A stretch of 50,406 nucleotides of DNA from an uncultured Verrucomicrobiae bacterium. GTDB taxonomy: Bacteria > Verrucomicrobiota > Verrucomicrobiia > Opitutales > Opitutaceae. Below are positions 20,497 to 50,406 of this stretch, one piece after another. Made by a program: the position numbers and the translations under genes. The stretch is taken from NCBI GenBank assembly GCA_963722225.1, contig CAVRNM010000068.1, positions 1 to 50,406 of the forward strand. The letters are read 5' to 3'. Position 1 is the stretch's first letter. Each line of letters opens with the position of its first letter. The notes beneath the pieces were generated by a model, which did no database searches, had not been told where the DNA came from, and saw only the letters and a program-made list of their open reading frames with translations.

Positions 20497-20688
20497 GGCT
20501 AAGCCGGATCGATGCAGTCGGGGCGATTTCATACTCGTGGTTCGACGCACAGTTCGGTCGGGCGTTGTAGGGCGGGGTCGCCGCACCCCGCCACTTTCGG
20601 CAAAACGGCGGGATGGCGGATGTCGCGCCTTGTGGCGCTCGGTACGGCGATCCCGCCCTGCATCCGACTGCATGGGTTCGGCTAAGCC
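20497..20688. repeat. Composite REP/MITE-like element (family 1 palindrome nested between ~25-bp imperfect terminal inverted repeats)
   Basis: GGCTAAGCCGGATCGATGCAGTCGG (20497-20521) pairs with CCGACTGCATGGGTTCGGCTAAGCC (20664-20688). The core TGTAGGGCGGGGTCGCC..GCGATCCCGCCCTGCA lies at 20566-20662. Confidence 0.7.
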
Positions 20689-30458: not shown

Positions 30459-30515
30459 TAGACAATCCTCCGGTCAATGGTGTCGCCGCAAGCGCCAGCG
30501 AGTGGAACGTATCAT

Positions 30516-30583
30516 TGTAGGGCGGGATCGCCGTATCCCGCCATGTTTGGCAGCACGGCGGCGTTCGGCGACCCCGCCCTACA
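30516..30583. repeat. REP-like palindrome, family 1 (TGTAGGGCGGG..CCCGCCCTACA), inside the actB/actC intercistronic gap
   Basis: TGTAGGGCGGGATCGCCGTATCCCGCC..GGCGACCCCGCCCTACA. It is made of two internal hairpins and the ends are mutually complementary. Confidence 0.8.
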
Positions 30584-36020: not shown

Positions 36021-36085
36021 GTAGGGCCGGCGCCGTTTCGACAGGCTCAAGGCCCCGAGCGTGCCGAGGCGCTTGTCGCCGGGCC
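36021..36085. repeat. REP-like element, family 3 (CCGTTTCGACAGGCTCAAGGCCCCGAGCG core)
   Basis: GTAGGGCCGGCGCCGTTTCGACAGGCTCAAGGCCCCGAGCGTGCCGAGGCGCTTGTCGCCGGGCC. A second copy lies at 39923-39988. Confidence 0.7.
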
Positions 36086-36170
36086 AATTATCGACGGGAT
36101 GAGGGTCCGCCGACGAGCGGCGACTCTACGCCTCCTGCACCAGGCCGACTCCGCGGCGGCGGGTTTCCCA

Positions 36171-38072
36171 TCAGATCGCATAGTCATCCGGCGACGAGCG
36201 TTCGTTCGGGGACCTGGGCACATCGGACGCCTGCTCCTGCTTCTTGTTGTAAAACAGTCGCACGTCGGCCCGGCGAGTGTGCAACAGCTCGGTGGCACGC
36301 TTCAACGCCCGCTTCGTGCTCATCGTGAGATTGGTTTCCGCGGGAAACACATTCTCGGGGCCGATCTGCGCCAGCGCACCGCTGTTCTTCAGGACGCTCA
36401 TCACATCCGCGTTGCAGCCGCTGATGAGCATGTGGCGGCCGCTGCCCTGCAGATAATCATGCAGATTTTCCATGGCCATGACCGTCGAGGCATCGAGGTG
36501 GCGGGCATTCTTCATGCGCAGGATGAAGACCCGGATGTGGGCGTCCTCCGACAGGCGCCGGATCTCCTCCTGGAACAGGTCGGCGGCGCCGAAGTACAGC
36601 TCGCCCTCGACGTGGATGATCGAGATCTGCGGATTGGCCCGCGCGGAAGGATCCTGCAACTCCGCAAGCTGGCCGCTCTCGTTGAAGGCATATTCGACGA
36701 GCGAGGGCGTGCTGGTTTTCTGCAGGAACAGCACCAGCGCCACCCCAATGCCCACATAGATGGCCGTCTCAAGCTTGAAGAAAAGCGCGGCGCCAAGCGT
36801 TACGGCGAACACCACGGCATCGGACCGCGTCGACCGCAGGGACACCCGGATCTGCGCTTTGTTGACCAGGCGAAGGCCCACGCGCATCAGGTGGGCGGCC
36901 AGGGCGGCAACCGGGATGTAATTGAAGACCGGCGTGACCAGGAACAGGATCACCAACACCACCAGGCTGCTGAGCATCGAGGAGAGCTGCGACGTGGCGG
37001 CGCTCTGGTAATTCACCGCCGACCGCGTGAAGGAGGAGGAACCCGGAGTCACCCCGAAGAGCCCGCACGCCATGTTTCCGACGCCCATGCCCAGGAGTTC
37101 CTGGTTGGGTTCGAGCGCCTGGCCGCTCTTGGCCGCCAGCGATTTGGTGATCGCGGTGGCCTCCAGCATCCCAATGATGGCGATCGCGATCACGGTGCTG
37201 GACAGCTGCGACAACACGGCCCACTGCGTCGCGAGCGAGGGCAGCCACTCCAGCTGGGGAATCACCGCCATGAGCGCCCCCTCGTCCTGCACCAGCTTGA
37301 AAGGCACCACCGTGAGCCCGAAAATGTGGTCGCGGACAACCAGATACGCGAAGAACCTGGCGGCCAGACCCAGGACAGCGAGGCCGATGAGTGCCTCCGG
37401 CCAGGACCGGCGCCAACGCTTGATTCCCTCGAAAATCGCCAGGGTCAACAACCCGATGCCGATGGCCCACCAGGAGAAGGCGTCGTCGCGGACCGCCTGG
37501 GCCACCTTCGTCAGGACCGTCACGAAGCTTTCGCCGGCCGGCACATGGAATCCCATGAAATTGGGACCCTGGCTCGTGATGAGAAGCACGCCGATTGCCG
37601 TGGTGTACCCAATGACGACCGAGCGCGAAATGAACTTGGTCACCTCGCCGAAATTAAACAGGCCGGCGAGAAATTGCGTGAGGCCGATCAAAAAAGCCAT
37701 GTAGGCCGCCAGCGCCAGCGGGTGGAGGCCGAGGTTGGCGTTGCCCGTGATCGTGGCCGCGGTGATCAGGCAGACCGACGTCGTCGGGCCAAACACGTGA
37801 TAGTGCGAGGAGAAGAACAGCGCGCTAAAGAAACCGCCGACCACGACCGAAATGATCACGGGCATTGGCGGCAGGCCCAGGATCAGGGCAAAGCCAATGG
37901 CCTGGGGGACCGACACCAGCGTCAGCGTCGCCCCGGCGACCAGGTCCGCGCGAAGCCGTTTCCAGCTGTAGTTCCGGAACTCCCCGACCAAGGGGAAGCT
38001 CACCCGGAACATCTTGGCCCGCAGCGCCTGGGCGTCCGTTATGGTTTCTCTGACAGTTTCCGCGACACTCAT
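36171..38072 (-). CDS. SulP-family anion transporter with C-terminal STAS domain
   Basis: 633-aa ORF. N-terminal LRADLVAGATLTLVSVPQAIGFALILGLPP, a polytopic body, and a C-terminal STAS-like region (IIHVEGELYFGAADLFQEEI..VFILRMKNARHLDAST). Confidence 0.9.
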   Translation of the reverse strand: MSVAETVRETITDAQALRAKMFRVSFPLVGEFRNYSWKRLRADLVAGATLTLVSVPQAIGFALILGLPPMPVIISVVVGGFFSALFFSSHYHVFGPTTSVCLITAATITGNANLGLHPLALAAYMAFLIGLTQFLAGLFNFGEVTKFISRSVVIGYTTAIGVLLITSQGPNFMGFHVPAGESFVTVLTKVAQAVRDDAFSWWAIGIGLLTLAIFEGIKRWRRSWPEALIGLAVLGLAARFFAYLVVRDHIFGLTVVPFKLVQDEGALMAVIPQLEWLPSLATQWAVLSQLSSTVIAIAIIGMLEATAITKSLAAKSGQALEPNQELLGMGVGNMACGLFGVTPGSSSFTRSAVNYQSAATSQLSSMLSSLVVLVILFLVTPVFNYIPVAALAAHLMRVGLRLVNKAQIRVSLRSTRSDAVVFAVTLGAALFFKLETAIYVGIGVALVLFLQKTSTPSLVEYAFNESGQLAELQDPSARANPQISIIHVEGELYFGAADLFQEEIRRLSEDAHIRVFILRMKNARHLDASTVMAMENLHDYLQGSGRHMLISGCNADVMSVLKNSGALAQIGPENVFPAETNLTMSTKRALKRATELLHTRRADVRLFYNKKQEQASDVPRSPNERSSPDDYAI

Positions 38073-38088
38073 GCAGGCAACGGCAATT

Positions 38089-39003
38089 CTACGCCTGCAA
38101 TCCGATTTTCTCCAGAATCCGCTGCAGATCGTTGTTGCCGGCGTATTCGATAATGATGCGGCCGCGCTTGGGCGTGTGCTGGAGGGAGACGCGCGCGCCG
38201 AGGTGCGTCGTCAGTCGTTTCTGGATGTCCGTCACCGCGGCGGCCTCGGCCGGCGGCACCGCGCGGCCTTTGCCCGGGCCGGCGGGAGCAGCCGGATGGC
38301 TTTGCGCGATCTTCTCCAGCACGCGCACACTCAGGCCCTCCTCGATCACCCGCCGGGCGAGGATCGCGCGCCGCGCCGGCTCCTCCAGCCCGAGCAACAC
38401 CTTGGCATGGCCCGGACTGAGCAGGCCCTTCGCCAGATAACCCTGGATCTCGGCGTCGAGCAAGAGCAGCCGGAGGGAATTGGCCACCGAGGCCCGGCCC
38501 CGGCCCACCCGCTCGGACGTCTGCTCCTGGGTAAGATCGAAATCCCGGATCAAACTCGCATAGCCGTACGCCTCTTCAATCGGATTCAGCCCCTCGCGCT
38601 GCAGGTTCTCAATCAACGTGAGCGCGGCGGAGGAGGCGTTGCTGGCCTCCAGGAGGCGCGCCGGAATGGTCTTGAGCTTCAATGACTGGAAGGCGCGCCA
38701 GCGACGTTCGCCGGCGATCAGCTGGAATTTCTCGCCCACCTTGCGTACCACGATCGGCTGGAGCAGCCCCTCCGCCCGGATGCTTTCGGCGAGCTCCTTC
38801 AGTTGCTCGGGATGGATGTCCTTGCGCGGCTGATACGGACTCGGCTCCACCAGGTGCACCGGCACTTCCTGGAAACCCGGCGCCGCCGGGGCGGCGGCGG
38901 CCGGACTGGCCGCCGCCTTCGCTTCGATTTTCGGCGCCCCGGGGGTGCCGCTGGCGATCAAGGCTCCGAGGCCGCGTCCAAGTCTGGATTTCGGTAATGC
39001 CAT
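38089..39003 (-). CDS. parB: Chromosome-partitioning protein ParB
   Basis: GRGLGALI, QPRKDIHPEQLKELAESIRAEGLLQPIVVR, ERRWRA and ENLQREGLNPIEEA are canonical ParB/Spo0J boxes. No parA is adjacent in this window. Confidence 0.9.
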   Translation of the reverse strand: MALPKSRLGRGLGALIASGTPGAPKIEAKAAASPAAAAPAAPGFQEVPVHLVEPSPYQPRKDIHPEQLKELAESIRAEGLLQPIVVRKVGEKFQLIAGERRWRAFQSLKLKTIPARLLEASNASSAALTLIENLQREGLNPIEEAYGYASLIRDFDLTQEQTSERVGRGRASVANSLRLLLLDAEIQGYLAKGLLSPGHAKVLLGLEEPARRAILARRVIEEGLSVRVLEKIAQSHPAAPAGPGKGRAVPPAEAAAVTDIQKRLTTHLGARVSLQHTPKRGRIIIEYAGNNDLQRILEKIGLQA

Positions 39004-39011
39004 GGGGGTGG

Positions 39012-39602
39012 TTATTTCTGCTGCGGAATAAACAGCGTCTGCCCGGCCTGCAGCCGGGTCGGATCGGCAATCTTGTTGGCGTTGATGATGTCCTGCATCC
39101 GGGCATTCGTCTTGTGCGCGATGCTGGAAAGCGTGTCGCCCCGCTGCACCGTGTAACTGACGCCTTCCTTGGGATAGTCGTCGGTGAACGTGGGCGTGCT
39201 CACCGCGGGCCGGAGGGCGGCGCCCTTGGCCAGCGCATTGATCGCCGCCTGGGTCTCGTTCGCCAGCTTCTCCATCTGTCCGCTCACCACCTGGAGGGTC
39301 TCGCGGCGCTGGTCCCGCATCGCCGCCTGCAGGGTCTTCTGGAGATCCGCCAGGGCTTCATTCATCTGGGCGAGCGTGACGTAGGTCTGGCTCGACTTTG
39401 ACTGCAGGTCGTTGTTCGCCCGCTCGAGCTGTTCGACGCGGAGACTAAGTTCGTTCACCCGCTGGGTGAGCAGGCGGACGTCCTCATGGAGGCTGGCGAC
39501 CTCGAATGCCGGCGAATTGTTCTGCGCCGGCAGCCTAAGGGAGGTGAGAATGACCGCGGCGACCAACCCGGCAACACAGCGAAAACAAGTGTGATGCGGC
39601 AT
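39012..39602 (-). CDS. Membrane-anchored coiled-coil protein with C-terminal LysM domain
   Basis: N-terminal hydrophobic anchor, a heptad-rich middle (LTQRVNELSLRVEQLERANNDLQSK) and a LysM motif YTVQRGDTLSSIAHKTNARMQDIINANKI..LQAGQTLFIP. It ends 8 nt upstream of parB. Confidence 0.75.
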   Translation of the reverse strand: MPHHTCFRCVAGLVAAVILTSLRLPAQNNSPAFEVASLHEDVRLLTQRVNELSLRVEQLERANNDLQSKSSQTYVTLAQMNEALADLQKTLQAAMRDQRRETLQVVSGQMEKLANETQAAINALAKGAALRPAVSTPTFTDDYPKEGVSYTVQRGDTLSSIAHKTNARMQDIINANKIADPTRLQAGQTLFIPQQK

Positions 39603-39666
39603 ATGTGCGCCAGCATTGGAAGAAACGTCGGCAAAAACAAGCGAAAGCCGGGAGGGTCTCCGGCCC

Positions 39667-39823
39667 GGCGCATCTTCTGATAATCGGTGATTCCGAAGGT
39701 AGCGCAGCCATCCTTGGCTGCATCGGTTGCAGGCTGGAAGCCTGCGCTACGAAACGCGACCGCTCGTTCATCACCGATGGCGCCGGCTTGCTGCCTGCTC
39801 TCCCGTCAATCGGGCGATGCGCC
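39667..39823. repeat. 157-bp REP/MITE-like element, family 2 (terminal GGCGCATC / GATGCGCC, internal hairpins)
   Basis: GGCGCATCTTCTGATAATCGGTGATTCCGAAGGTAGCGCAGCCATCCTTGGCTGC..GCAGGCTGGAAGCCTGC..CAATCGGGCGATGCGCC. It matches 46966-47122 in the same orientation and 46099-46264 inverted. Confidence 0.8.
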
Positions 39824-39922
39824 CATCCCGGCCCGGCGGAACGGAGGCGCGTTTTAATTGTCGCCCCGCCCGGGGTGGTGCGCGTTGTTCCGGACGCGCT
39901 CAACCGGGACTATGCATTCGAG

Positions 39923-39988
39923 TATAGGGCCGTCGCCGTTTCGACAGGCTCAAGGCCCCGAGCGTGTCGAGGGGCTGGTCGACGGGCC
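39923..39988. repeat. REP-like element, family 3, second copy
   Basis: TATAGGGCCGTCGCCGTTTCGACAGGCTCAAGGCCCCGAGCGTGTCGAGGGGCTGGTCGACGGGCC. It is a direct-orientation match to 36021-36085. Confidence 0.7.
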
Positions 39989-41425: not shown

Positions 41426-41515
41426 CGGAGGGAAGGCTGCTCACGCCGCATGGTCTCGACCGGCCGCGCCCACTTGACGCGCCACACCCGTTTCAGCCGA
41501 AACGATGCCGTTGGC

Positions 41516-41583
41516 TGTAGGGCGGGATTGCCGAATCCCGCCGATCTGCCGAGAGTGGCGGGGTGCGGCGACCCCGCCCTACA
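41516..41583. repeat. REP-like palindrome, family 1
   Basis: TGTAGGGCGGGATTGCCGAATCCCGCC..GGCGACCCCGCCCTACA. Confidence 0.8.
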
Positions 41584-41871
41584 GCGCCCCACCGAACGGT
41601 GCGGCGAACTACGAGCAAGAATCGCCCCAACTGCAAGGATCCGTCTCAGCGGTGGCCGCGACCATTTCCCGGTCGGGCCTGACGAAGCCGCTGCTCTTAT
41701 AATCGGGATCGGGGACACGGAGGATTGCGGAGGTCATAAAGCGTGAAGGCTGGCGGAGCCGAAGGCAACGTTAGTCGCCATCCGGTCGTGTCCTGATCTG
41801 AGGGCGTAAGTCCTTCAAGTCCCGGCTTGGGCGACGATTTTCCGCCCCGCTAAAAATAACGATCAAGAAAA

Positions 41872-42171
41872 GTGCGTTTGTGGCGATACCCTGACTTGGG
41901 GGTTCCGATGTCCCACGTTCATACTATAGGCGGCTACACCACCGCCGTCGAATACCAGGAGCACTTGCTGCAGATGAAGGCAGCTCGGGAATCCGAACGT
42001 GACGCGAACGACCGGCGCAAGGCTCGCGTTCGGGCGTCTGATTTCAAGGTTGACCCTGATCGTGACCGGGGAGGCCATTCCGAGAGCGAAGCCGATTCCG
42101 AGAAAGAGGCCGGTTCCGAACAAGAATCCGATCCCGGCCCAGACGGTGGTTCCCTTCGCGGGTACGCCTAG
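41872..42171 (+). CDS. Hypothetical small acidic protein (weak call)
   Basis: 99-aa ORF in a locally lower-GC stretch with an acidic Ser/Glu/Asp-rich tail. A competing antisense ORF lies at 41863..42123. No homology was recognised. Confidence 0.25.
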   Translation: MRLWRYPDLGVPMSHVHTIGGYTTAVEYQEHLLQMKAARESERDANDRRKARVRASDFKVDPDRDRGGHSESEADSEKEAGSEQESDPGPDGGSLRGYA

Positions 42172-42219
42172 CAGAGCGCGGAAGGAGTAGGAGCGCGGAG
42201 GGCGAAGCGCGACGCGCTC

Positions 42220-42621
42220 CTAGACTGCGCTTTTCTCCCGGCTCAGCACCGTCATCATCGAGAACGCCTCGGTGGCGAACACGGCATGGGGGAACCCCGG
42301 CGGCAGGTGCAGCAGGTCGCCGGCCCGCAGGGGTGTCTTCTTGCCGGCCAACGTGAATTCGCAGGCGCCGCTGAGGATTTGAATCAGCGCCCGGGCGGGC
42401 GTGCTGTGCTCGGTGATCCGCTGGCAGGCTGCAAAGGCGAAGAGCGTCACGCGCACGCCATCCTGGTCCTGCAGGGCGCGGCTGACGATGCCGGTGTCCG
42501 AGAATTCCGTTGCTTCAGCCAGATTCAGAACGCTGGCCTTGGTTGGATCAAAAAGCGTGGATTGAGCCATGGGAATAAAATGCGGCCTTGCGGTGCTCAC
42601 AATTCTCTCATGCAACTCCAC
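42220..42621 (-). CDS. Cupin-domain protein
   Basis: 133-aa ORF with a cupin-like TEHSTPARALIQILSG..AGDLLHLPPGFPHAVFA. Confidence 0.7.
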   Translation of the reverse strand: MELHERIVSTARPHFIPMAQSTLFDPTKASVLNLAEATEFSDTGIVSRALQDQDGVRVTLFAFAACQRITEHSTPARALIQILSGACEFTLAGKKTPLRAGDLLHLPPGFPHAVFATEAFSMMTVLSREKSAV

Positions 42622-42640
42622 AGGCTGTCCAGTGCCGCGT

Positions 42641-42707
42641 TGTAGGGCGGGGTCGCCTGCCCTGTCGCATTAGACGCCCCGGCGGGATCCGGCGATCCCG
42701 CCCCACA
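42641..42707. repeat. REP-like palindrome, family 1 (more degenerate copy)
   Basis: TGTAGGGCGGGGTCGCCTGCCCTGTCGC..GGCGGGATCCGGCGATCCCGCCCCACA. Confidence 0.7.
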
Positions 42708-42729
42708 TTCGAAGTGGTGTCGTTCCCGC

Positions 42730-44271
42730 TCAGCGACGATCATAGACTAGGGTCTGCTCCACTTTTCCCGGCCCCCTGAACGAATCCATGATGGAATGGA
42801 TGGAGAGTCGGTCCCCCCGGTTTTCGAGCGTCCAGGTTTCCTGGGTCTTCATCTTGAATCCCGGAGGACCAAAAACCAGAGCGATCGTCGAATCCATGGT
42901 GATGGTCGATCCATCGTCGCCCAGCCGGGCGACCGTCGTGCGGGGGGATCTCATGACCACCGATTTCGATTCGGTCCCGTCGAGCGGATACTTCGCCTCG
43001 GTGGTCTCATCGTCGCTGGATTCTCGAACAATGGTCGATTGCACGGTGAGCACATTGCCCTCGTGGGTGACCGCGAGCCGGGCGGGGGAGAAACCCGCGC
43101 CCATCGGACCGAAATGGCTCGCCTCCTCATTGAGCACCCAGATGCCGGTGAAATCCCCTGACGGGAGTGCGACATGGACCGGCGGCAATCCGCACGTCTT
43201 CCGGTAGGCGGCAGTCACTTCGGCGTACTTCGCGTCATTCAATCCGAGCATGCGCGGGGAGCTCATCACGACGGCATATTGCTTCTTGGTCGTGTTCCGC
43301 ACCATCCCCGACCAGATGGCATAGTAGGTCCAGAGCGGCTGTTTTTCCAGGATCTCGGGGGCCGGGGGAGCGCCGACTTCCGCCAGGGCGAGCGGTTTGC
43401 CCTGCGACAGCTTCACGAGGCTGTCATAATACGATTGGGCGAAGTCGTTCCCGTAAACGTCGAGGCCCAGCACATCCACATATTCGATGCCGGGAAAATA
43501 TTTCGCGTGCTCCCGCTCCGGCTTTTCGCTGACGCGATCCATGCTCCAGAGCCAGATCAGGTTCTTCAGCTGGTGGTGATTGACCAGCCGGTCAAAGAGC
43601 TGGCGGTAGAGTGCCGCCGTGGTGTATTGCCCTTCGTAGCGCCCGCCCCACCAGAACCAGTCGCCATTGTTCTCGTGGTAGGGCCGCCAGAGAATGGGGA
43701 CATGGGCGTCCTGCAACTGCTTGAGAAAACCGGCGATGACGTCGACCTGCGCGGCCCAGTGATTGTACAAGGCGGTGCCCGGCGTGAGGACATCCTTGAA
43801 CTGCTCGTCGAGGAGCCGTCCTTGGACGCTCTTGAGCATCTTGGGATCGGCGCCAGGCAGGGGACGGAAGGTGACCGGCTCGTCGGCGGTGGGCGGCACC
43901 GCGTGCCAGCAGAGGCTGATGATCGAGCCCATCTGGTGCTGGCGGATGGCCTCCTTCACGATGTTGGGACGCGCCAACGTGGAGTCCGAGTCACCGGCCG
44001 CGGCGAATCCAAAATCGCAGGTCCAGACCGCCGGATATTTGCCGATGTACTTGGCCGCAAACTTCGAATTCCGGTCGCCTCCCATCGGGGGATTGTGCCG
44101 GCCCGTCAAGGTGTAGTGGCCGGAGATCTCCTGCAGCGTGGCGAGCAGCGCCGCGGCTTCAGGCAATGCATCCGGAGTGACCGGCTTGATGACCGGATCG
44201 GCGCCGAACAGGGCTTGGCCGAAGAGCAGCGGAAGGCAGGCGACCCCTAAGGTTTTGCGGAGTGAGTTCAT
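42730..44271 (-). CDS. GH26-family glycoside hydrolase (beta-mannanase-like) with signal peptide and C-terminal beta-rich domain; intact copy
   Basis: Signal peptide MNSLRKTLGVACLPLLFGQALFG. The GH26-type block ILWRPYHENNGDWFWWGG is present, followed by LIWLWS and LGLDVYGN. The 513-aa frame is uninterrupted. Confidence 0.8.
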   Translation of the reverse strand: MNSLRKTLGVACLPLLFGQALFGADPVIKPVTPDALPEAAALLATLQEISGHYTLTGRHNPPMGGDRNSKFAAKYIGKYPAVWTCDFGFAAAGDSDSTLARPNIVKEAIRQHQMGSIISLCWHAVPPTADEPVTFRPLPGADPKMLKSVQGRLLDEQFKDVLTPGTALYNHWAAQVDVIAGFLKQLQDAHVPILWRPYHENNGDWFWWGGRYEGQYTTAALYRQLFDRLVNHHQLKNLIWLWSMDRVSEKPEREHAKYFPGIEYVDVLGLDVYGNDFAQSYYDSLVKLSQGKPLALAEVGAPPAPEILEKQPLWTYYAIWSGMVRNTTKKQYAVVMSSPRMLGLNDAKYAEVTAAYRKTCGLPPVHVALPSGDFTGIWVLNEEASHFGPMGAGFSPARLAVTHEGNVLTVQSTIVRESSDDETTEAKYPLDGTESKSVVMRSPRTTVARLGDDGSTITMDSTIALVFGPPGFKMKTQETWTLENRGDRLSIHSIMDSFRGPGKVEQTLVYDRR

Positions 44272-44310
44272 GGTGGTTGGATTGAGGACAGAAAGGCGGA
44301 ACCGGGTGAA

Positions 44311-44439
44311 TCAGGGCAGGACGGTGACCGTTTTCCGAAGGGTCAGGTCGGGATCGGGGAACGGATAGTCGTAGGTCGCGGCGGCGCCGGAAATGCCCGC
44401 GCCGAGCACTACCGCGAGAATGACAGGGCGGATCTTCAT
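44311..44439 (-). CDS. 42-aa signal-peptide-like small ORF between GH5 and GH26 (left arm)
   Basis: MKIRPVILAVVLGAGISGAAATYDYPFPDPDLTLRKTVTVLP. It is nucleotide-identical to the mirrored copy at 48787-48915. Coding status is unproven. Confidence 0.3.
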   Translation of the reverse strand: MKIRPVILAVVLGAGISGAAATYDYPFPDPDLTLRKTVTVLP

Positions 44440-44508
44440 GACGGGAGTGATTGCCCAAGACCGAGAAAAAGACGAATCCGCGATTGCATCTCCATGAGTG
44501 GATGCGGG

Positions 44509-45916
44509 CTACTTGATCTCGCCGTGCATCGCCGCCTTGGCGAATTCTCCCGATGGACTGAGCTCGTAATTCCAATTCTTGATCAGGGTCGGCCCCCACG
44601 TCGGATCGAAGCACCACACCGTCCAGCTGATGCCTTTCCCTCGAGATACTTGATGATCTCCGGGCCATAGGTGGCATTGCGGGCGCCCGGACCGGTCGGT
44701 TCTGCCGCGGGCTTTTCGCCGTTCGGCGGCGGTGGCTTCGCGAAACCGCCGAATTCCGTGGCGATGACGGGGTACCTGTCGGCCACGAAGCCGAAATCCA
44801 GTTCCCATTTCGGCGCCCATGGCGGGGGACGTTTATTGGCGTAGGGGTGGACGGAGTACGCAATGCGCTCCGCGGCGATCGGAGCGAGGCGCACGGCGTC
44901 AGGTCGTACGCCCAATCGAACCCCGCCACCACCGGGATCACCTGGGGATTGGTCGCGCGAATCATGGTGATTTCGCTCTCCACGATCTTCTTCCAATCGC
45001 TCCAGGAAACCGGACCCAATTGATCGCGGTAGGTGGTGGGTTCATTGAAGAGTTCGAAGAACGCGACCGTGTCGTGGCCCGCAAATGCCGGGCCATCATC
45101 CGCCAGAAATTGAAGGTTTCCCTCTGGGTCGTGTCGTACATCGGGTCCTGAAAGACCTCCGTCTCGAGATTCCCGATGCTGTGCCAGTCCAGCATGACAT
45201 ACATGTCCAGTTCCGTGCACCAGCCGACGGCTTGGTCGAGCAGCTTGATGTACTCCGCCGGAGTGCGTTCGCGCCAGGCGACGGGATGGACGGGGATGCG
45301 GACGAATTTGGTGCCCATCTCCTTGACCTTGATGAAATGGTCCTTGTTCCAATGTCCCGGCATTTCGAGCTGTCCGGATCCGAGATCGCCAATCCGCGGA
45401 ACAGAACCGTATTCCCCTCCGGATCCACGAACTGTTCCCTTTGACCGGGATCACGGGCATTTTCTTGTTATCAACCGTGTAGGGGCGCTGCCCCGGAGTC
45501 CGATCCCGCCACCGCAAATGAGTCCGTGGCGTATTCGGTTGACTCGGGGTTCGCCTTGCGCGGCTCTTCTTCGTCCGCGTCACTTCATCTTGATCCCGTC
45601 GCCAAAGGCCACGACCTCCACCGAGATTTCTCGTCCGAGACGAGCTGGCATCTGTAATCGATGGGGTTCCCGCAAACTCGATCGAAAAGCTAACGCGGAT
45701 CCGTTCACTTTGCCGCGCTTGATCTCATTGGCGCCCATCGGGGAGTCGACCGTCCGGTCAATTGCTCGCCCGTGACGGCAAAAGTGAAAAAAAGGTCGGG
45801 ACCGGTGCCGGCGTCCGGCAATGGTATCGACGTCTTCCATCTTCCGCTGATTCTCCGGCGAACGCACCCGCGACCGAAGCCACGAGCAGGACCAAGGCAA
45901 GTTTCCACTTTTTCAT
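44509..45916 (-). pseudogene. GH5-family glycoside hydrolase with N-terminal signal peptide and small beta domain; multiply frameshifted (left arm copy)
   Basis: Pieces in different frames:
- MKKWKLALVLLVASVAGAFAG
- ISGRWKT..DLFFTFAVTGEQLTG
- TVDNKKMPVIPVKGN
- FVDPEGNTVLFRGLAISDP
- HFIKVKEMGTKFVRIPVHP..YVMLDWHSIGN
- TVAFFELFNEP (acid/base Glu)
- PVIATEFGG (nucleophile Glu)
- GISWTVWCFDP..GEIK. Confidence 0.75.
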
Positions 45917-46098
45917 GAGTGATGTTAGTCGGGAAGGGAGAAATATCTGGGCCAGCCTTTGCTCAAGTCCACTCCCTAAGCCATCGGACGGGCACGGGGA
46001 GCGTTCATTGCTATTCGCCACAAGAATACGCTGTCCAACCTTTAGGTATCGTGAAGAATTGAGCCGTGCCGCACCTTTCCGCGAATCACCCCTGGAGG

Positions 46099-46264
46099 GG
46101 CGCATCCCCGATTGACGGTGAAGCAGGCAGCAAGCCTGCGCCATCGGCGACTAACGAGCGGTCGCGTTTCGTAGCGCAGGCTTCTAGCCTGCAGCCGATG
46201 CAGCCAGGGATGGCTGCGCTACGTTCGGAATCACCGACAATCGGGAGATGCGCCACCCCAGGAG
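46099..46264. repeat. Family 2 REP/MITE-like element (inverted orientation), left palindrome arm
   Basis: This is the reverse complement of the 46966-47122 element, with the same internal hairpins (GCAGGCTTCTAGCCTGC, GCAGCCAGGGATGGCTGC). Confidence 0.8.
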
Positions 46265-46423
46265 GATGGCGAGAAAAATTGGGAGAAAGTCCCACCGACA
46301 TCACGTTGTTTTGGGTATCGGCGGCTCGGCAACGAGACGCGGGCTGAGACATCCGGGGCACCGAATGGTGGTCCTCCTTTACGTCGCTGAAGGTTGGGAT
46401 AGCTAAACTGTCGTCATACTTCC

Positions 46424-46593
46424 ATGACCCGCCTTAAATTCATCAACCTGACTGCCGCCGCCACCGGCTCTCGCTCATCGCCCGCCCCGGGCTGGCCCAG
46501 TTATCTTCATTCCGCGCCCCCAGACGGGACCCCCGCGCTGGCGCGGGTTCAACCTGACCGAGAGTCAACGGCGGCCCCCGCGGAGGCCGCCCC
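46424..46593 (+). pseudogene. Degenerate mirror copy of the Tat-signal GH5-like N-terminal fragment (left of palindrome centre)
   Basis: MTRLKFINLTAAATGS.. is a decayed version of MTRREFITLTAAATGS.. on the other arm. It carries clustered substitutions (GCG to TTA, CCCGCCCC to TTATCTT) and small indels. Confidence 0.55.
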
Positions 46594-46796
46594 GATCGGC
46601 CATCCCACTGGAAGTCGGATTCCCGATAGGGGCGGCCTCCGCGGGGGCCGCCGTTCATCTCGGTCAGGTTGAACCCGCGCCAGCGCGGGATTTTCGGCTG
46701 GGGGCGCGGAATGGGGGCGGGCTGGGCCAGCCCGGGGCGGGCGATGAGCGAGCCGGTGGCGGCGGCGGTCAGGGTGATGAATTCGCGGCGGGTCAT
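46594..46796 (-). pseudogene. Truncated Tat-signal GH5-like gene fragment ending at the palindrome centre
   Basis: MTRREFITLTAAATGSLIARPGLAQPAPIPRPQPKIPRWRGFNLTEMNGGPRGGRPYRESDFQW. This is a Tat-type signal followed by the RGFNL..DFQW N-terminal block typical of GH5 enzymes. After DFQW the frame runs into the mirrored arm. Confidence 0.6.
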
Positions 46797-46965
46797 GGAA
46801 GTATGACGACAGTTTAGCTATCCCAACCTTTAGCGAGCGTGAAGGGACATCCATTCGGTGCCCCGGATGTCTCAGCCCGCGTCTCGTTCCGAGCCGCCAA
46901 TACCCAAAAACAACGTGATGTCGCTGGTTTTTTCTCCGAATTTTTCCGCGCCATCCTCCTGGGGT

Positions 46966-47122
46966 GGCGCATCTCCCGATTGTCGGTGATTCCGAACGTA
47001 GCGCAGCCATCCCTGGCTGCATCGGCTGCAGGCTAGAAGCCTGCGCTACGAAACGCGACCGCTCGTTCATCGCCGATGGCGCAGGCTTGCTGCCTGCTTC
47101 ACCGTCAATCGGGAGATGCGCC
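46966..47122. repeat. Family 2 REP/MITE-like element, right palindrome arm
   Basis: GGCGCATCTCCCGATTGTCGGTGATTCCGAACGTAGCGCAGCCATCCCTGGCTGC..CAATCGGGAGATGCGCC. Confidence 0.8.
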
Positions 47123-47304
47123 CCTCCAGGGGTGATTCGCGGAAAGGTGCGGCACGGCTCAATTCTTCACGATACCTAAAGGTTGGACAGCGTATTCTTG
47201 TGGCGAATAGTAACGAACGCTCCCCGTGCCCGTCCGATGGCTTAGGGAGTGGACTTGAGCAAAGGCTGGCCCAGAAATATCTCCCTTCCCGATTAACATC
47301 ACTC

Positions 47305-48717
47305 ATGAAAAAGTGGAAACTTGCCTTGGTCGTGCTCGTGGCTTCCGTCGCGGGTGCGTTCGCCGGAGATATCAGCGGAAGATGGAAGACCCCGATGCCA
47401 TCGCCGGACGGTGGCACCGGTCCGACCTGTTTTTCACTTTTGCCGTCACGGGCGAGCAATTGACCGGAACGGTGGAGTCCCCGATGGGTGCCAACGAGAT
47501 CAAGCGCGGCAAAGTGAACGATCGGCGTTCAGCTTTTCGATCGAGTTCAACGGGAATTCATCGACTACAGAGGCCAGGTCGTCTCGGACGGAGAAATCTC
47601 GGTGGAGGTCGTGGGCTTTGGCGACGGGATGAAGATGAAGCTGACGCGGACGAAAGAAGAGCCGCGCAAGGCCGAAACCCCGAGTCAGCCGAGTACGCCA
47701 CGGACTCATACGTGGTGGCGGGATCGGACTCCGGGCAGCGCCCCTCACGGTTGATAACAAGAAAATGCCCCTGATCTCGGTCAAAGGGAACAAGTTCGTG
47801 GATCCGGAGGGGAATACGGTTCTGTTCCGCGGATTGGCGATCTCGGATCCGGACAAGCTCGAAATGCAGGGACATTGGAGCAAGGACCATTTCATCAAGG
47901 TCAAGGAGATGGGCACCAAATTGGTCCGCATCCCCGTCCATCCCGTCGCCTGGCGCGAACGCACTCCGGCGGAGTACATCAAGCTGCTCGACCAAGCCGT
48001 CGGCTGGTGCACGGAACTGGACATGTATGTCATGCTGGACTGGCACAGCATCGGAAATCTTGAGACGGAGGTCTTTCAGGACCCGATGTACGACACGACC
48101 CAGAGGGAAACCTTCAATTTCTGGCGGATGATGGCCCGGCATTTGCGGCCACAACACGGTCGCGTTCTTCGAACTCTTCAATGAACCCACCACCTACCGC
48201 GATCAATTGGGTCCGGTTTCCTGGAGCGATTGGAAGAAGATCGTGGAGAGCGAAATCACCATGATTCGCGCGACCAATCCCCAGGTGATCCCGGTGGTGG
48301 CGGGGTTCGATTGGGCGTACGACCTGACGCCGTGCGCCTTGCTCCGATCGCCGCGGAGCGCATTGCGTACTCCGTCCACCCCTACGCCAATAAACGTCCC
48401 CCGCCATGGGCGCCGAAATGGGAACTGGATTTCGGCTTCGTGGCCGACAGGTACCCCGTCATCGCCACGGAATTCGGCGGTTTCGCAAAGCACCGCCGCC
48501 GAACGGCGAAAAGCCCGCGGCAGAACTGACCGGTCCGGGCGCCCGCAATGCCACCTATGGCCCGGAGATCATCAAGTATCTCGAAGGGAAAGGCATCAGC
48601 TGGACGGTGTGGTGCTTCGATCCGACGTGGGGGCCGACCCTGATCAAGAATTGGAATTACGAGCTCAGTCCATCGGGAGAATTCGCCAAGGCGGCGATGC
48701 ACGGCGAGATCAAGTAG
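47305..48717 (+). pseudogene. GH5-family glycoside hydrolase, multiply frameshifted (right arm copy)
   Basis: MKKWKLALVVLVASVAGAFAGDISGRWKTPMPSPDGGTG / DLFFTFAVTGEQLTGTVESPMGANEIKRGKVN / SFSIEFNGN / IDYRGQVVSDGEISVEVVGFGDGMKMKLTRTKEEP / TVDNKKMPLISVKGNKFVDPEGN..DWHSIGN.. / ..GPVSWSDWKK.. / ..PVIATEFGG / ..GISWTVWCFDP..GEIK. The frame-break positions differ from the left copy. Confidence 0.75.
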
Positions 48718-48786
48718 CCCGCATCCACTCATGGAGATGCAATCGCGGATTCGTCTTTTTCTCGGTCTTGGGCAATCACTCCCGTC

Positions 48787-48915
48787 ATGAAGATCCGCCC
48801 TGTCATTCTCGCGGTAGTGCTCGGCGCGGGCATTTCCGGCGCCGCCGCGACCTACGACTATCCGTTCCCCGATCCCGACCTGACCCTTCGGAAAACGGTC
48901 ACCGTCCTGCCCTGA
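48787..48915 (+). CDS. 42-aa signal-peptide-like small ORF (right arm copy)
   Basis: Its sequence is identical to 44311-44439 in reverse complement. Confidence 0.3.
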   Translation: MKIRPVILAVVLGAGISGAAATYDYPFPDPDLTLRKTVTVLP

Positions 48916-48954
48916 TTCACCCGGTTCCGCCTTTCTGTCCTCAATCCAACCACC

Positions 48955-50406
48955 ATGAACTCACTCCGCAAAACCTTAGGGGTCGCCTGCCTTCCGCTGC
49001 TCTTCGGCCAAGCCCTGTTCGGCGCCGATCCGGTCATCAAGCCGGTCACTCCGGATGCATTGCCTGAAGCCGCGGCGCTGCTCGCCACGCTGCAGGAGAT
49101 CTCCGGCCACTACACCTTGACGGGCCGGCACAATCCCCCGATCGGAGGCGACCGGAATTCGGGGTTTGCGGCCAAGTACATCGGCAAATATCCGGCGGTC
49201 TGGACCTGCGATTTTGGATTCGCCGCGGCCGGTGACTTGGACTCCACGTTGGCGCGTCCCAACATCGTGAAGGAGGCCATCCGCCAGCACCAGATGGGCT
49301 CGATCATCAGCCTCTGCTGGCACGCGGTGCCGCCCACCGCCGACGAGCCGGTCACCTTCCGTCCCCTGCCTGGCGCCGATCCCAAGATGCTCAAGAGCGT
49401 CCAAGGACGGCTCCTCGACGAGCAGTTCAAGGATGTCCTCACGCCGGGCACCGCCTTGTACAATCACTGGGCCGCGCAGGTCGACGTCATCGCCGGTTTT
49501 CTCAGCAGTTGCAGGACGCCCATGTCCCCATTCTCTGGCGGCCCTACCACGAGAACAATGGCGACTGGTTCTGGTGGGGCGGGCGCTACGAAGGGCAATA
49601 CACCACGGCGGCACTCTACCGCCAGCTCTTTGACCGGCTGGTCAATCACCACCAGCTGAAGAACCTGATCTGGCTCTGGAGCATGGATCGCGTCAGCGAA
49701 AAGCCGGAGCGGGAGCACGCGAAATATTTTCCGGCATCGAATATGTGGATGTGCTGGGCCTCGACGTTTACGGGAACGACTTCGCCCAATCGTATTATGA
49801 CAGCCTCGTGAAGCTGTCGCAGGGCAAACCGCTCGCCCTGGCGGAAGTGGCGCTCCCCCGGCCCCCGAGATCCTGGAAAAACAGCCGCTCTGGACCTACT
49901 ATGCCATCTGGTCGGGGATGGTGCGGAACACGACGAAGAAGCAATATGGCGTCGTGATGAGCTCCCCGCGGATGCTCGGATTGAATGATGCGAAGTACGC
50001 AAGCGAATGCTGCCTATCGGAACACGTGCGGATTGCCGCCGGCCCACGTCGCACTCCCCTCAGGGAATTTTACCGGCACCTGGGTGCTCAACGAGGAGGC
50101 GAGCCAATTCGGCCCGATGGGCGCTGGTTTCTCTTTCCCCCGGCTCGTGGTCACCCACCAGGGCAATGTGCTCACCGTGCAATCGACCAGTCCGAGAATC
50201 CAGGGATGATGAGACCACCGAGACGAAATACCTGCTCGACGGCACCGAAACGAAATCGGAGGTCATGAGATTTCCCCGCACCACCGTCGCCCGGCTGGGC
50301 GACGATGGATCCACGATTCGATGGATTCGACACCGCTGTGCCCTTCGGGCCTCCCGGATCCAAGTTGAAGACCCAGGAAACCTGGACGCTGGAGACGAGC
50401 TGATGA
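48955..50406 (+). pseudogene. GH26-family glycoside hydrolase, frameshifted copy; 3' end runs off the window
   Basis: The first 187 aa are nearly identical to the left copy (four substitutions: M/I, K/G, S/L, K/S). The frame breaks at CTCAGCAG where the left copy has CTCAAGCAG, again at GAAGTGGCG where the left has GAAGTCGGCG, and further downstream. Confidence 0.75.

Follow-up and report, generated by a model that had tools for sequence, protein, structure and literature searches.

Near its end, this stretch of DNA from an uncultured Opitutaceae bacterium reads as one long, almost spacerless palindrome around a GH26/GH5 glycan-degradation locus, which raises the question of whether the genome carries an inverted duplication or the contig folds back on itself artificially. 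We performed a computational analysis of the window, that is, the whole stretch of 50,406 nt, which is the entire contig according to NCBI and ENA. Our analysis suggested that the palindrome is very probably a fold-back sequencing or assembly artefact at the 3' end of a metagenomic contig and not a structure of the genome. An earlier note had offered both a real duplication and a chimera and had leaned to the former; the chimera option held up, and the lean did not.

Geometry and gene content of the palindrome

An inverted-repeat search of the window returned 30 colinear pairs over 42824-50393, with paired-coordinate sums of 93217-93227, and when 42808-46610 was aligned globally with the reverse complement of 46612-50406, 3636 positions matched, with 142 substitutions and 42 gap positions. 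The palindrome of about 7.6 kb, described in the earlier note as running from about 42.8 kb to the window end, is therefore present, and the colinearity of its arms, for which sums of 93,220-93,226 had been given, is borne out. The arms occupy 42808-46599 and 46623-50406, are approximately 95% identical and colinear, and enclose a loop of 23 nt around a centre at 46611. No inverted repeat beyond one 87-nt pair was found in the remaining 42.8 kb of the window, so that the palindrome lies far beyond chance.

The loop (46600-46622) is single-copy by comparison with orthologues and with the protein P0125; the short unique spacer proposed earlier thus stands, its size of 35 nt having been approximate. 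On its minus strand the loop continues the Tat-GH5 gene (..ESDFQW[M]A), after which the contig turns back. Weak pairing (13/17) reaches to within 3 nt of the palindrome centre, and the fold-back junction shows 2 nt of microhomology (GG/CC). The reconstructed junction sequence contained no notable natural hairpin, folding no better than shuffled controls (z = -0.5). A restriction-ligation junction was also considered and rejected, as GATC occurs there on one side only and leaves no clear signature.

The mirror anchors of the earlier note were recovered in both arms, namely the GH26 start codons at 44271(-) and 48955(+), a 42-aa ORF at 44311-44439(-) and 48787-48915(+), the GH5 stops at 44509 and 48717 with start codons at 45916 and 47305, the REP-like element, and the Tat-fragment start codons at 46424(+) and 46796(-). 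A mirrored GH26/GH5 locus was accordingly upheld, but the copies are not intact: frameshifts affect the right GH26 and the two GH5 copies. First, the left GH26 mannanase gene (42730-44271, minus strand) is intact, encodes 513 aa, is identical to the gene on the independent contig L001, and matches PF02156 above the gathering threshold over residues 31-330 (E 4.8e-49, 167.8 bits). The ORF of the right copy (48955-50406, plus strand) breaks after 234 aa because of 1-nt deletions, its PF02156 match is that of the 234-aa fragment alone (22 bits), and the contig ends 26 codons short of the stop. Second, the gene GH5#1, whose product has 473 aa in relatives, is broken by 14 one-base deletions in the left copy (44509-45916, minus strand) and by nine in the right copy (47305-48717, plus strand), two of which lie at left-copy sites. 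Fragments of both copies match PF00150 above the gathering threshold (29-47 bits), and the frameshift-corrected protein of 473 aa is 86% identical to intact PF00150 proteins. Third, a REP/MITE-like element of 165 nt lies at 46099-46264 and again at 46966-47130. Next to the centre stands the N-terminus of a second, Tat-signal GH5 gene (GH5#2). Its left copy (46424-46599, plus strand) is degraded and has lost the RR motif, with clustered multi-base substitutions and indels at raw-read quality; its right copy (46598-46796, minus strand) reads MTRREFITLTAAATGS...PKIPRWRGFNLTEM...YRESDFQW and agrees with orthologues. Scans of the window for tRNAs and Rfam families gave no hits.

Two alleles and an uneven error profile

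Identity between the arms is U-shaped: it is about 100% at 43.4-45.4 kb but falls to 81-89% towards the outer end and to 89-94% close to the centre. Among the 63 substitutions between the GH26 arms, 37 fall at third codon positions (10/16/37 over the three positions) and 33 are synonymous. In the outer part of GH26, the right-arm base was also present in relatives at 47 of 57 sites, and none of the 57 was without a counterpart there. The right-arm residues S442F and V466P are common to P0121 and P0122, and right-arm variants in general lean towards the L008/L009 lineage. Most arm substitutions are genuine evolutionary variants, and two real alleles are present. The right arm (46623-50406), an inverted copy with about 19 one-base deletions in coding sequence, consequently represents a second real allele (B) rather than the flipped strand of one molecule, while the left arm (42808-46599) is the authentic locus with allele A, continuous with the unique left flank. 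The codon-position bias and the variants shared with relatives rule out that the right arm is an error-laden copy of the left, and arms from one molecule that differ by sequencing error alone, as a plain fold-back would produce, were not what we found. Allele B most likely comes from a rarer co-occurring strain.

The claim that the arm differences are evolutionary was thus supported by the 37 third-position changes and the 47 sites shared with relatives; the conclusion drawn from it, a real duplication, was not, because real variants between arms do not imply duplication within one genome. In a metagenome, evolutionary-looking arm divergence is no proof of duplication, because a false second arm can absorb the reads of a co-occurring strain. 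The peptide pairs put forward as paralog divergence (of the type TSIPLPDAG/TPMPSPDGG) fared worse, as they fall in the N-terminal third of GH5#1, where changes unique to the left arm are error-like. The 16 left-only substitutions in that third are spread 4/7/5 over the codon positions and accompanied by 1-nt deletions, the right arm agrees with all relatives at each of these sites, and the left-arm changes look like errors.

Errors are confined to the terminal ~5.8 kb. Left of 44641 there were no differences from the short-read contigs; from 44641 to the junction the left arm becomes increasingly error-laden, with error-like changes over 45300-46599. Beyond 44640, GH5#1 and GH26 together hold about 33 one-base deletions (14 in the left arm and about 19 in the right) and no insertions, two of the one-base deletions are common to both arms, and substitutions occur in raw-read-like clusters. 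Quality next to the junction is strongly unequal between the arms.

These properties bear on a genuine, strain-private inverted duplication, which would place GH26-GH5-REP head-to-head in 3.8-kb arms around the 23-nt loop. It would require anciently diverged GH26-GH5 paralogues whose middle 2 kb is kept identical by gene conversion, a genome that tolerates the structure despite the near-absent spacer, and an assembler that stopped at the outer repeat boundary. Arm differences that are largely real variants under purifying selection are in keeping with such an origin, as is an identical core with diverged flanks, which resembles gene conversion. However, the frameshifts are deletion-only and technical in character, whereas the substitutions show selection, a combination that does not fit an old pseudogenised copy, and the unequal quality of the arms beside the junction also speaks against it. 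Taken with the evidence below, we consider a genuine duplication very unlikely.

The conserved gene at the centre and independent assemblies

The palindrome centre cuts GH5#2 after about 66 of its approximately 363 codons. Orthologues have 363 aa (L010), and matches in the window extend to residues 1-61 alone; at the DNA level, homology to L010, L012 and L013 ends at 46605. P0125, encoded on a 10,617-nt contig (NCBI and ENA), equals the right-arm Tat copy over 64 aa after one C is dropped from a C5 run, and in the true frame its final 12 aa can be reconciled with DFQW-MAQWGFNFARLP, which lies past the turn-back point. P0126 has DFQW-MAQWGFNFARLP as the conserved GH5#2 continuation, and L010 has a close match to it. 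The contig of P0125 probably belongs to the same assembly as the palindrome contig. An independent assembly with different sequence after the Tat-GH5 gene had been named earlier as evidence against a duplication, and P0125 provides this in substance. Scans of GTDB and JGI with a conserved 30-mer, aimed at the contig of P0125, returned nothing beyond orthologues at about 77% identity, and a protein search with the corrected GH5#1 for same-species contigs reaching the centre gave 86% at best, or 94% on a 1.4-kb fragment. A genuine duplication would destroy at its centre a conserved gene whose reading frame continues intact in P0125.

The same evidence decides on a hairpin telomere, that is, the covalently closed end of a linear replicon, with a long read running round the turn. 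A palindrome at the contig terminus with a very short loop would suit such an end. Nevertheless, the turn lies inside an enzyme gene that continues in orthologues and P0125, the left flank shares its synteny with ordinary chromosomal DNA in relatives, where that DNA continues past the turn, and arms with different alleles are impossible for one hairpin molecule. We found neither arms that are the two strands of one molecule nor a dedicated terminal turn site, and this extremely improbable reading is effectively refuted by the two alleles.

Independent assemblies showed the locus without the palindrome. Two short-read contigs that come from different runs, L001 and L015, align to 41554-45223. 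They cross 42808-43400, a stretch with 11-19% divergence between the arms, without branching and run on into the left flank. L001 is 99.9% identical over 41554-45223, the sole differences being three deletions and one substitution at 44641-45086. L014 is 100% identical to 36034-39744, so that the same strain was present in its sample. Over the left arm and its flank, the matches of L001, L015 and L014 all lie at 99.9-100% identity. At the nine core sites where the arms differ by substitution, eight contigs from eight samples, two of which run unbranched into the left flank, carried the left-arm base at all nine, and the right-arm base was found in none of these eight independent contigs. Among relatives, the GH5-GH26 cassette occurs once in each of 24 contigs of the P0002 lineage and in L008 and L009. 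The synteny comparison suggested in the earlier note therefore shows the cassette to be single in all relatives examined, and the locus is single-copy in every independent assembly examined. These assemblies are colinear and lack the junction; no independent contig spans the junction region.

These observations speak against a genuine duplication: the second allele is absent from eight contigs, all of them left-type, L001 and L015 do not branch where the divergence of the arms begins, the same strain appears in a sample that shows a single copy, and relatives are single-copy. The unbranched short-read contigs also argue indirectly against a 1:1 ratio of the two copies. Furthermore, the right arm runs to base 50406, the last of the contig, and no unique flank follows it on the distal side. 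Real inverted repeats also give contigs that end at a repeat boundary; but the two arms do not both lie within unique sequence, and the structure was not recovered independently. A palindrome at a contig terminus without a distal flank is what a fold-back chimera presents.

Another possibility is that an artefactual junction attached, as the right arm, a paralogous GH5-GH26 locus that is real but belongs elsewhere in the same genome. Two GH26 paralogues can occur within one Opitutaceae genome, as with P0014 and P0113 on a single 5.16-Mb contig, related lineages have the GH2-GH5-GH26 cassette in two distinct genomic contexts, and the lean of right-arm variants towards L008/L009 would also agree with such a locus. 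In contrast, a paralogue at 1:1 with a 100% identical 2-kb core would be expected to leave right-type bases or graph breaks, and neither appeared in the eight samples. Both the REP element and the start of Tat-GH5#2, missing in relatives with the other context, are mirrored in the right arm, which stops before any flank that would settle the context. A mis-joined paralogue is therefore unlikely. An invertible segment or composite transposon found no supporting evidence, this having been considered without a dedicated search for recombinase or transposase genes.

Origin of the contig end and its genomic setting

Under the fold-back explanation that we prefer, the real genome order would be left flank, GH26, 42-aa ORF, GH5#1, REP-like element and full-length Tat-signal GH5#2, and onward from there. 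The contig path would turn back about 66 codons into GH5#2 via the 23-nt loop and the 2-nt microhomology, a junction of the kind that snap-back or fold-back long reads, or a hairpin in the assembly graph, may produce; long reads were presumably used for this contig. After the turn, the contig would re-traverse the same locus on the opposite strand until its end, and this second pass, the right arm, may have been filled or polished with reads of the rarer, closely related allele in the same community, so that the arms would differ by evolutionary substitutions as well as sequencing errors. We infer this route for allele B. With two alleles in the arms, a simple fold-back read of a single molecule is insufficient, and a second strain or read recruitment during polishing must be invoked. 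One point against the artefact is not fully explained: if allele A does continue through 44.6-46.6 kb, its own reads should have polished the left arm there, which nevertheless stayed poor.

In bacteria, SbcCD processing makes long palindromes with so short a spacer unstable, and this instability, to be expected for a near-spacerless palindrome, is a further point against a genuine duplication. In Salmonella and E. coli, template switching at short inverted repeats does create tandem inverted duplications and long palindromes in vivo, within limits set by SbcCD. The contig end resembles these in its head-to-head copy, short loop and 2-nt microhomology. It differs from them in having no second unique flank, no notable natural junction hairpin and no presence in independent assemblies, and its arms have diverged too far for a recent event but carry technical frameshifts. 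For mammalian cells, Tanaka et al. (2002; PMC124374) are cited in this connection.

Fold-back reads are a documented artefact, known to cause inverted duplications at contig ends. Their share of ONT reads from genomic DNA is about 0.55-0.6%, and assembly graphs can become tangled by them (Heinz, Meyerson & Li, 2026; PMC12870357); palindromes from whole-genome amplification have been treated in the Pacasus preprint (doi 10.1101/173872). The contig end shares with such artefact reads a near-spacerless palindrome at a contig terminus with minimal junction sequence, a low-quality consensus with deletion-type indels only and the missing support from independent assemblies. Unlike them, its arms are different real alleles, for which one template-plus-complement molecule is insufficient and strain mixing is needed.

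If the fold-back explanation is correct, the last 3.8 kb or so of the metagenome contig as deposited consist of CAZyme genes that are frameshifted and falsely duplicated. Counts of GH5/GH26 and estimates of strain heterogeneity for the bin would then come out too high, and the tract could be mistaken for gene amplification. The main value of the present result would thus lie in quality control, by flagging a chimeric contig end; were the palindrome real, it would be an unusual case of a long near-spacerless palindrome persisting in a bacterium.

Apart from the fold-back, the left arm is an ordinary member of the Opitutaceae GH2/GH5/GH26 mannan-degradation cassette. Its GH26 is 88% identical to P0002 and its GH5#1 about 86% to P0146 of that cassette, and the two also agree in their downstream synteny (cupin, formyltransferase, LysM, ParB, SulP). 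Upstream of GH5#1, the REP-like element and Tat-signal GH5#2 stand here where relatives have a GH2 gene. In addition, a third copy of the REP/MITE-like element, 90% identical, lies outside the palindrome at 39667-39831.

Palindrome geometry and its centre

The earlier note described an imperfect palindrome centred at ~46,611; it is real in the sequence, and all of its mirror anchors were recovered. A repeat search of the window found inverted repeats between 42824 and 50393 as 30 colinear pairs, whose coordinates sum to 93217-93227. When 42808-46610 was aligned globally to the reverse-complemented 46612-50406, 3636 positions matched, 142 were substituted and 42 were gaps. Outside the palindrome, the other 42.8 kb held just one inverted repeat, of 87 nt. 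Arm identity in the global alignment was U-shaped: 81-89% at the outer end, ~100% at 43.4-45.4 kb and 89-94% near the centre. Among the mirrored genes, the left GH26 (513 aa) was the sole full ORF; the right GH26 ORF was broken after 234 aa, and GH5#1, lying between a 42-aa ORF and a REP-like element, was fragmented in left and right arms alike. In NCBI and ENA, the contig that encodes the window's proteins is exactly 50,406 nt long; the window thus comprises this contig entirely, and the right arm stops at its end.

The centre interrupts a second gene, the Tat-signal GH5#2. Its right-arm copy, read on the minus strand, is MTRREFITLTAAATGSLIARPGLAQPAPIPRPQPKIPRWRGFNLTEMNGGPRGGRPYRESDFQW, in which a canonical twin-arginine signal leads into the beginning of a GH5 domain. 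GH5#2 orthologues have 363 aa and continue as ...DFEWMRGWGFDFARLPLSYW in the orthologous locus L010 and ...DFETMAQWGFNFARLPLSYW in the homologous protein P0126, and only residues 1-61 have a counterpart in the window. The left copy tracks GH5#2 as far as 46599, the minus strand of a 23-nt single-copy loop (46600-46622) continues it, and the right arm begins at 46623; microhomology at the junction is 2 nt. DNA homology to three orthologous loci ends at 46605. The left copy of the gene start has lost the RR motif and carries clustered multi-base substitutions and indels where the right copy agrees with all orthologues. The reconstructed native junction sequence showed no unusual hairpin (z = -0.5). 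A hairpin telomere is scarcely credible.

Additionally, the same gene was found on another contig, of 10,617 nt, which encodes the 76-aa protein P0125 (NCBI and ENA). After removal of one C from a C5 run, P0125 equals the right-arm copy over 64 residues, and in the true frame its final 12 residues are consistent with the conserved continuation DFQW-MAQWGFNFARLP; thus GH5#2 reads on, in a separate contig, beyond the window's turn-back point. This contig shows a 1-nt deletion error of the window's kind and comes from the window's source databases, suggesting that it belongs to the window's own assembly. We consider the palindrome to be, with high probability, a fold-back chimera formed where the contig ends. 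Its path would turn back within GH5#2 and then run over the locus again, and the additional arm may have come to stand for a rarer related allele of the community. Among ONT genomic reads, ~0.55-0.6% have been documented as fold-backs, and such reads can entangle assembly graphs (PMC12870357).

Two layers of difference between the arms

The differences between the arms comprise technical errors and genuine evolutionary variants. Compared with relatives and the short-read contig L001, all indels in GH5#1 and GH26 were one-base deletions. The left arm had 14 of them, within 44641-45852, and the right arm ~19; two fell at sites common to both arms, and neither arm had an insertion in these genes. 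Left-only substitutions in GH5#1 (n = 16) fell on codon positions 4/7/5. The peptide pairs from which the earlier note argued for a real duplication (TSIPLPDAG vs TPMPSPDGG and others) lie in this error region of GH5#1, and their right-arm version is common to relatives. Deletion-only indels, clusters resembling raw reads and the contrast between a perfect interior and a degraded final ~5.8 kb suggest a long-read-type consensus, poorly supported at the contig end.

Substitutions between the arms in GH26 were at codon position 3 in 37/63 cases and synonymous in 33/63. In outer GH26, the right-arm base was present in at least one relative at 47/57 sites, and at 0/57 were both arm bases absent from relatives; S442F and V466P, for example, are right-arm residues common to the homologous proteins P0121 and P0122. 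Sites polymorphic among relatives showed a third-position bias (6/2/12 in GH5#1, 8/8/21 in GH26). Codon-position bias and variants common to relatives indicate that a second, real allele (B) makes up the right arm; the idea that it is simply the left-arm allele (A) inverted was rejected on these variants. Single-molecule fold-back alone is insufficient for two alleles, and the fold-back reading accounts incompletely for the unpolished left arm at 44.6-46.6 kb. An artefactual junction that mis-joined a real paralogous locus, whereby the palindrome would likewise be false, is unlikely.

Short-read contigs and related loci

Two contigs from different Logan runs, L001 (ERR10755936) and L015 (ERR11523656), each cover window 41554-45223. 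Their only differences from it, one substitution and three 1-nt deletions, are confined to 44641-45086 in the window's left arm. Neither contig branches across 42808-43400, a stretch with 11-19% divergence between the arms, and both carry on into the unique left flank. L014, from the run of L001, was 100% identical to window 36034-39744, so the window's strain was present in that run. The 42-aa ORF retrieved eight contigs, each from a different sample; all eight had the left-arm base at 9/9 core substitution sites between the arms, and the undeleted base at the left-arm deletion sites. From the usual behaviour of de Bruijn assemblers, right-type bases or graph breaks would be expected in short-read contigs if a second copy were present at 1:1 stoichiometry. 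A real strain-private palindrome with gene conversion is very unlikely, and the duplication favoured in the earlier note is unsupported, a fold-back artefact being preferred. The palindrome is useful as a flag for quality control, and it cautions against taking allele-like divergence between the arms of a palindrome in a metagenome contig as proof of a real duplication.

L001 and L015 share endpoints, are both 3673 nt and are 1 SNP apart (GH26 R58Q). Their common break at 45223 falls inside a highly conserved GH5 motif, GWCTELDMYVMLDWH, and is likely a k-mer fork common to related species and unrelated to the palindrome.

GH26 homologues carry the names Opitutaceae or Verrucomicrobiota. The left flank is syntenic with an ~88%-identical relative on at least 24 contigs (cupin, formyltransferase, LysM, ParB, SulP, DUF386, cytochrome c, Fe-S protein), which has one GH5 and one GH26; two further lineages, those of P0121 and P0122, carry a single GH5-GH26 cassette in a different context. 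Upstream of GH5#1 (window 45917-46423 vs 7880-8485 of the relative locus L003), the window lineage has the REP element and GH5#2; in its closest relatives, that place is taken by a 59-aa ORF and a 1205-aa GH2. The cassettes of these close lineages genuinely differ in composition. The 42-aa ORF (44311-44439 and 48787-48915), between GH5#1 and GH26, is among the called genes of eight independent assemblies; the L003 lineage has a GH5-GH26 spacer of just ~115 nt without it. Extra domains of ~130-180 aa, conserved in relatives, lie outside the Pfam catalytic matches at the GH26 C-terminus (42730-43280, residues ~331-513) and the GH5#1 N-terminus (45530-45916, residues ~1-130), and neither had a Pfam match.

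Repeat elements in the window

Three copies of a 165-nt REP/MITE-like element (core ATCGGGAGATGCGCC, terminal inverted repeats ~54 nt long) lie at 39667-39831, 46099-46264 and 46966-47130, the first being 90% identical and outside the palindrome. The syntenic relative L003 is ~385 nt shorter at the site of this first copy, and the core was in 0/14 fetched relative loci, so the element looks like a lineage-specific dispersed or mobile one. A short intergenic family (47-87 nt) with a GC-rich hairpin (TTGTAGGGCGGGGTCGCCGCACCCCGCC...) lies at 20565-20611, 30515-30561 and 41515-41561, with an inverted pair at 20528-20614 / 41535-41621; the end of L001 coincides exactly with one copy. In addition, a 64-nt direct repeat (92% identical; 36022-36085 and 39925-39988) flanks the SulP-ParB-LysM block, and L014 ends at its first copy.
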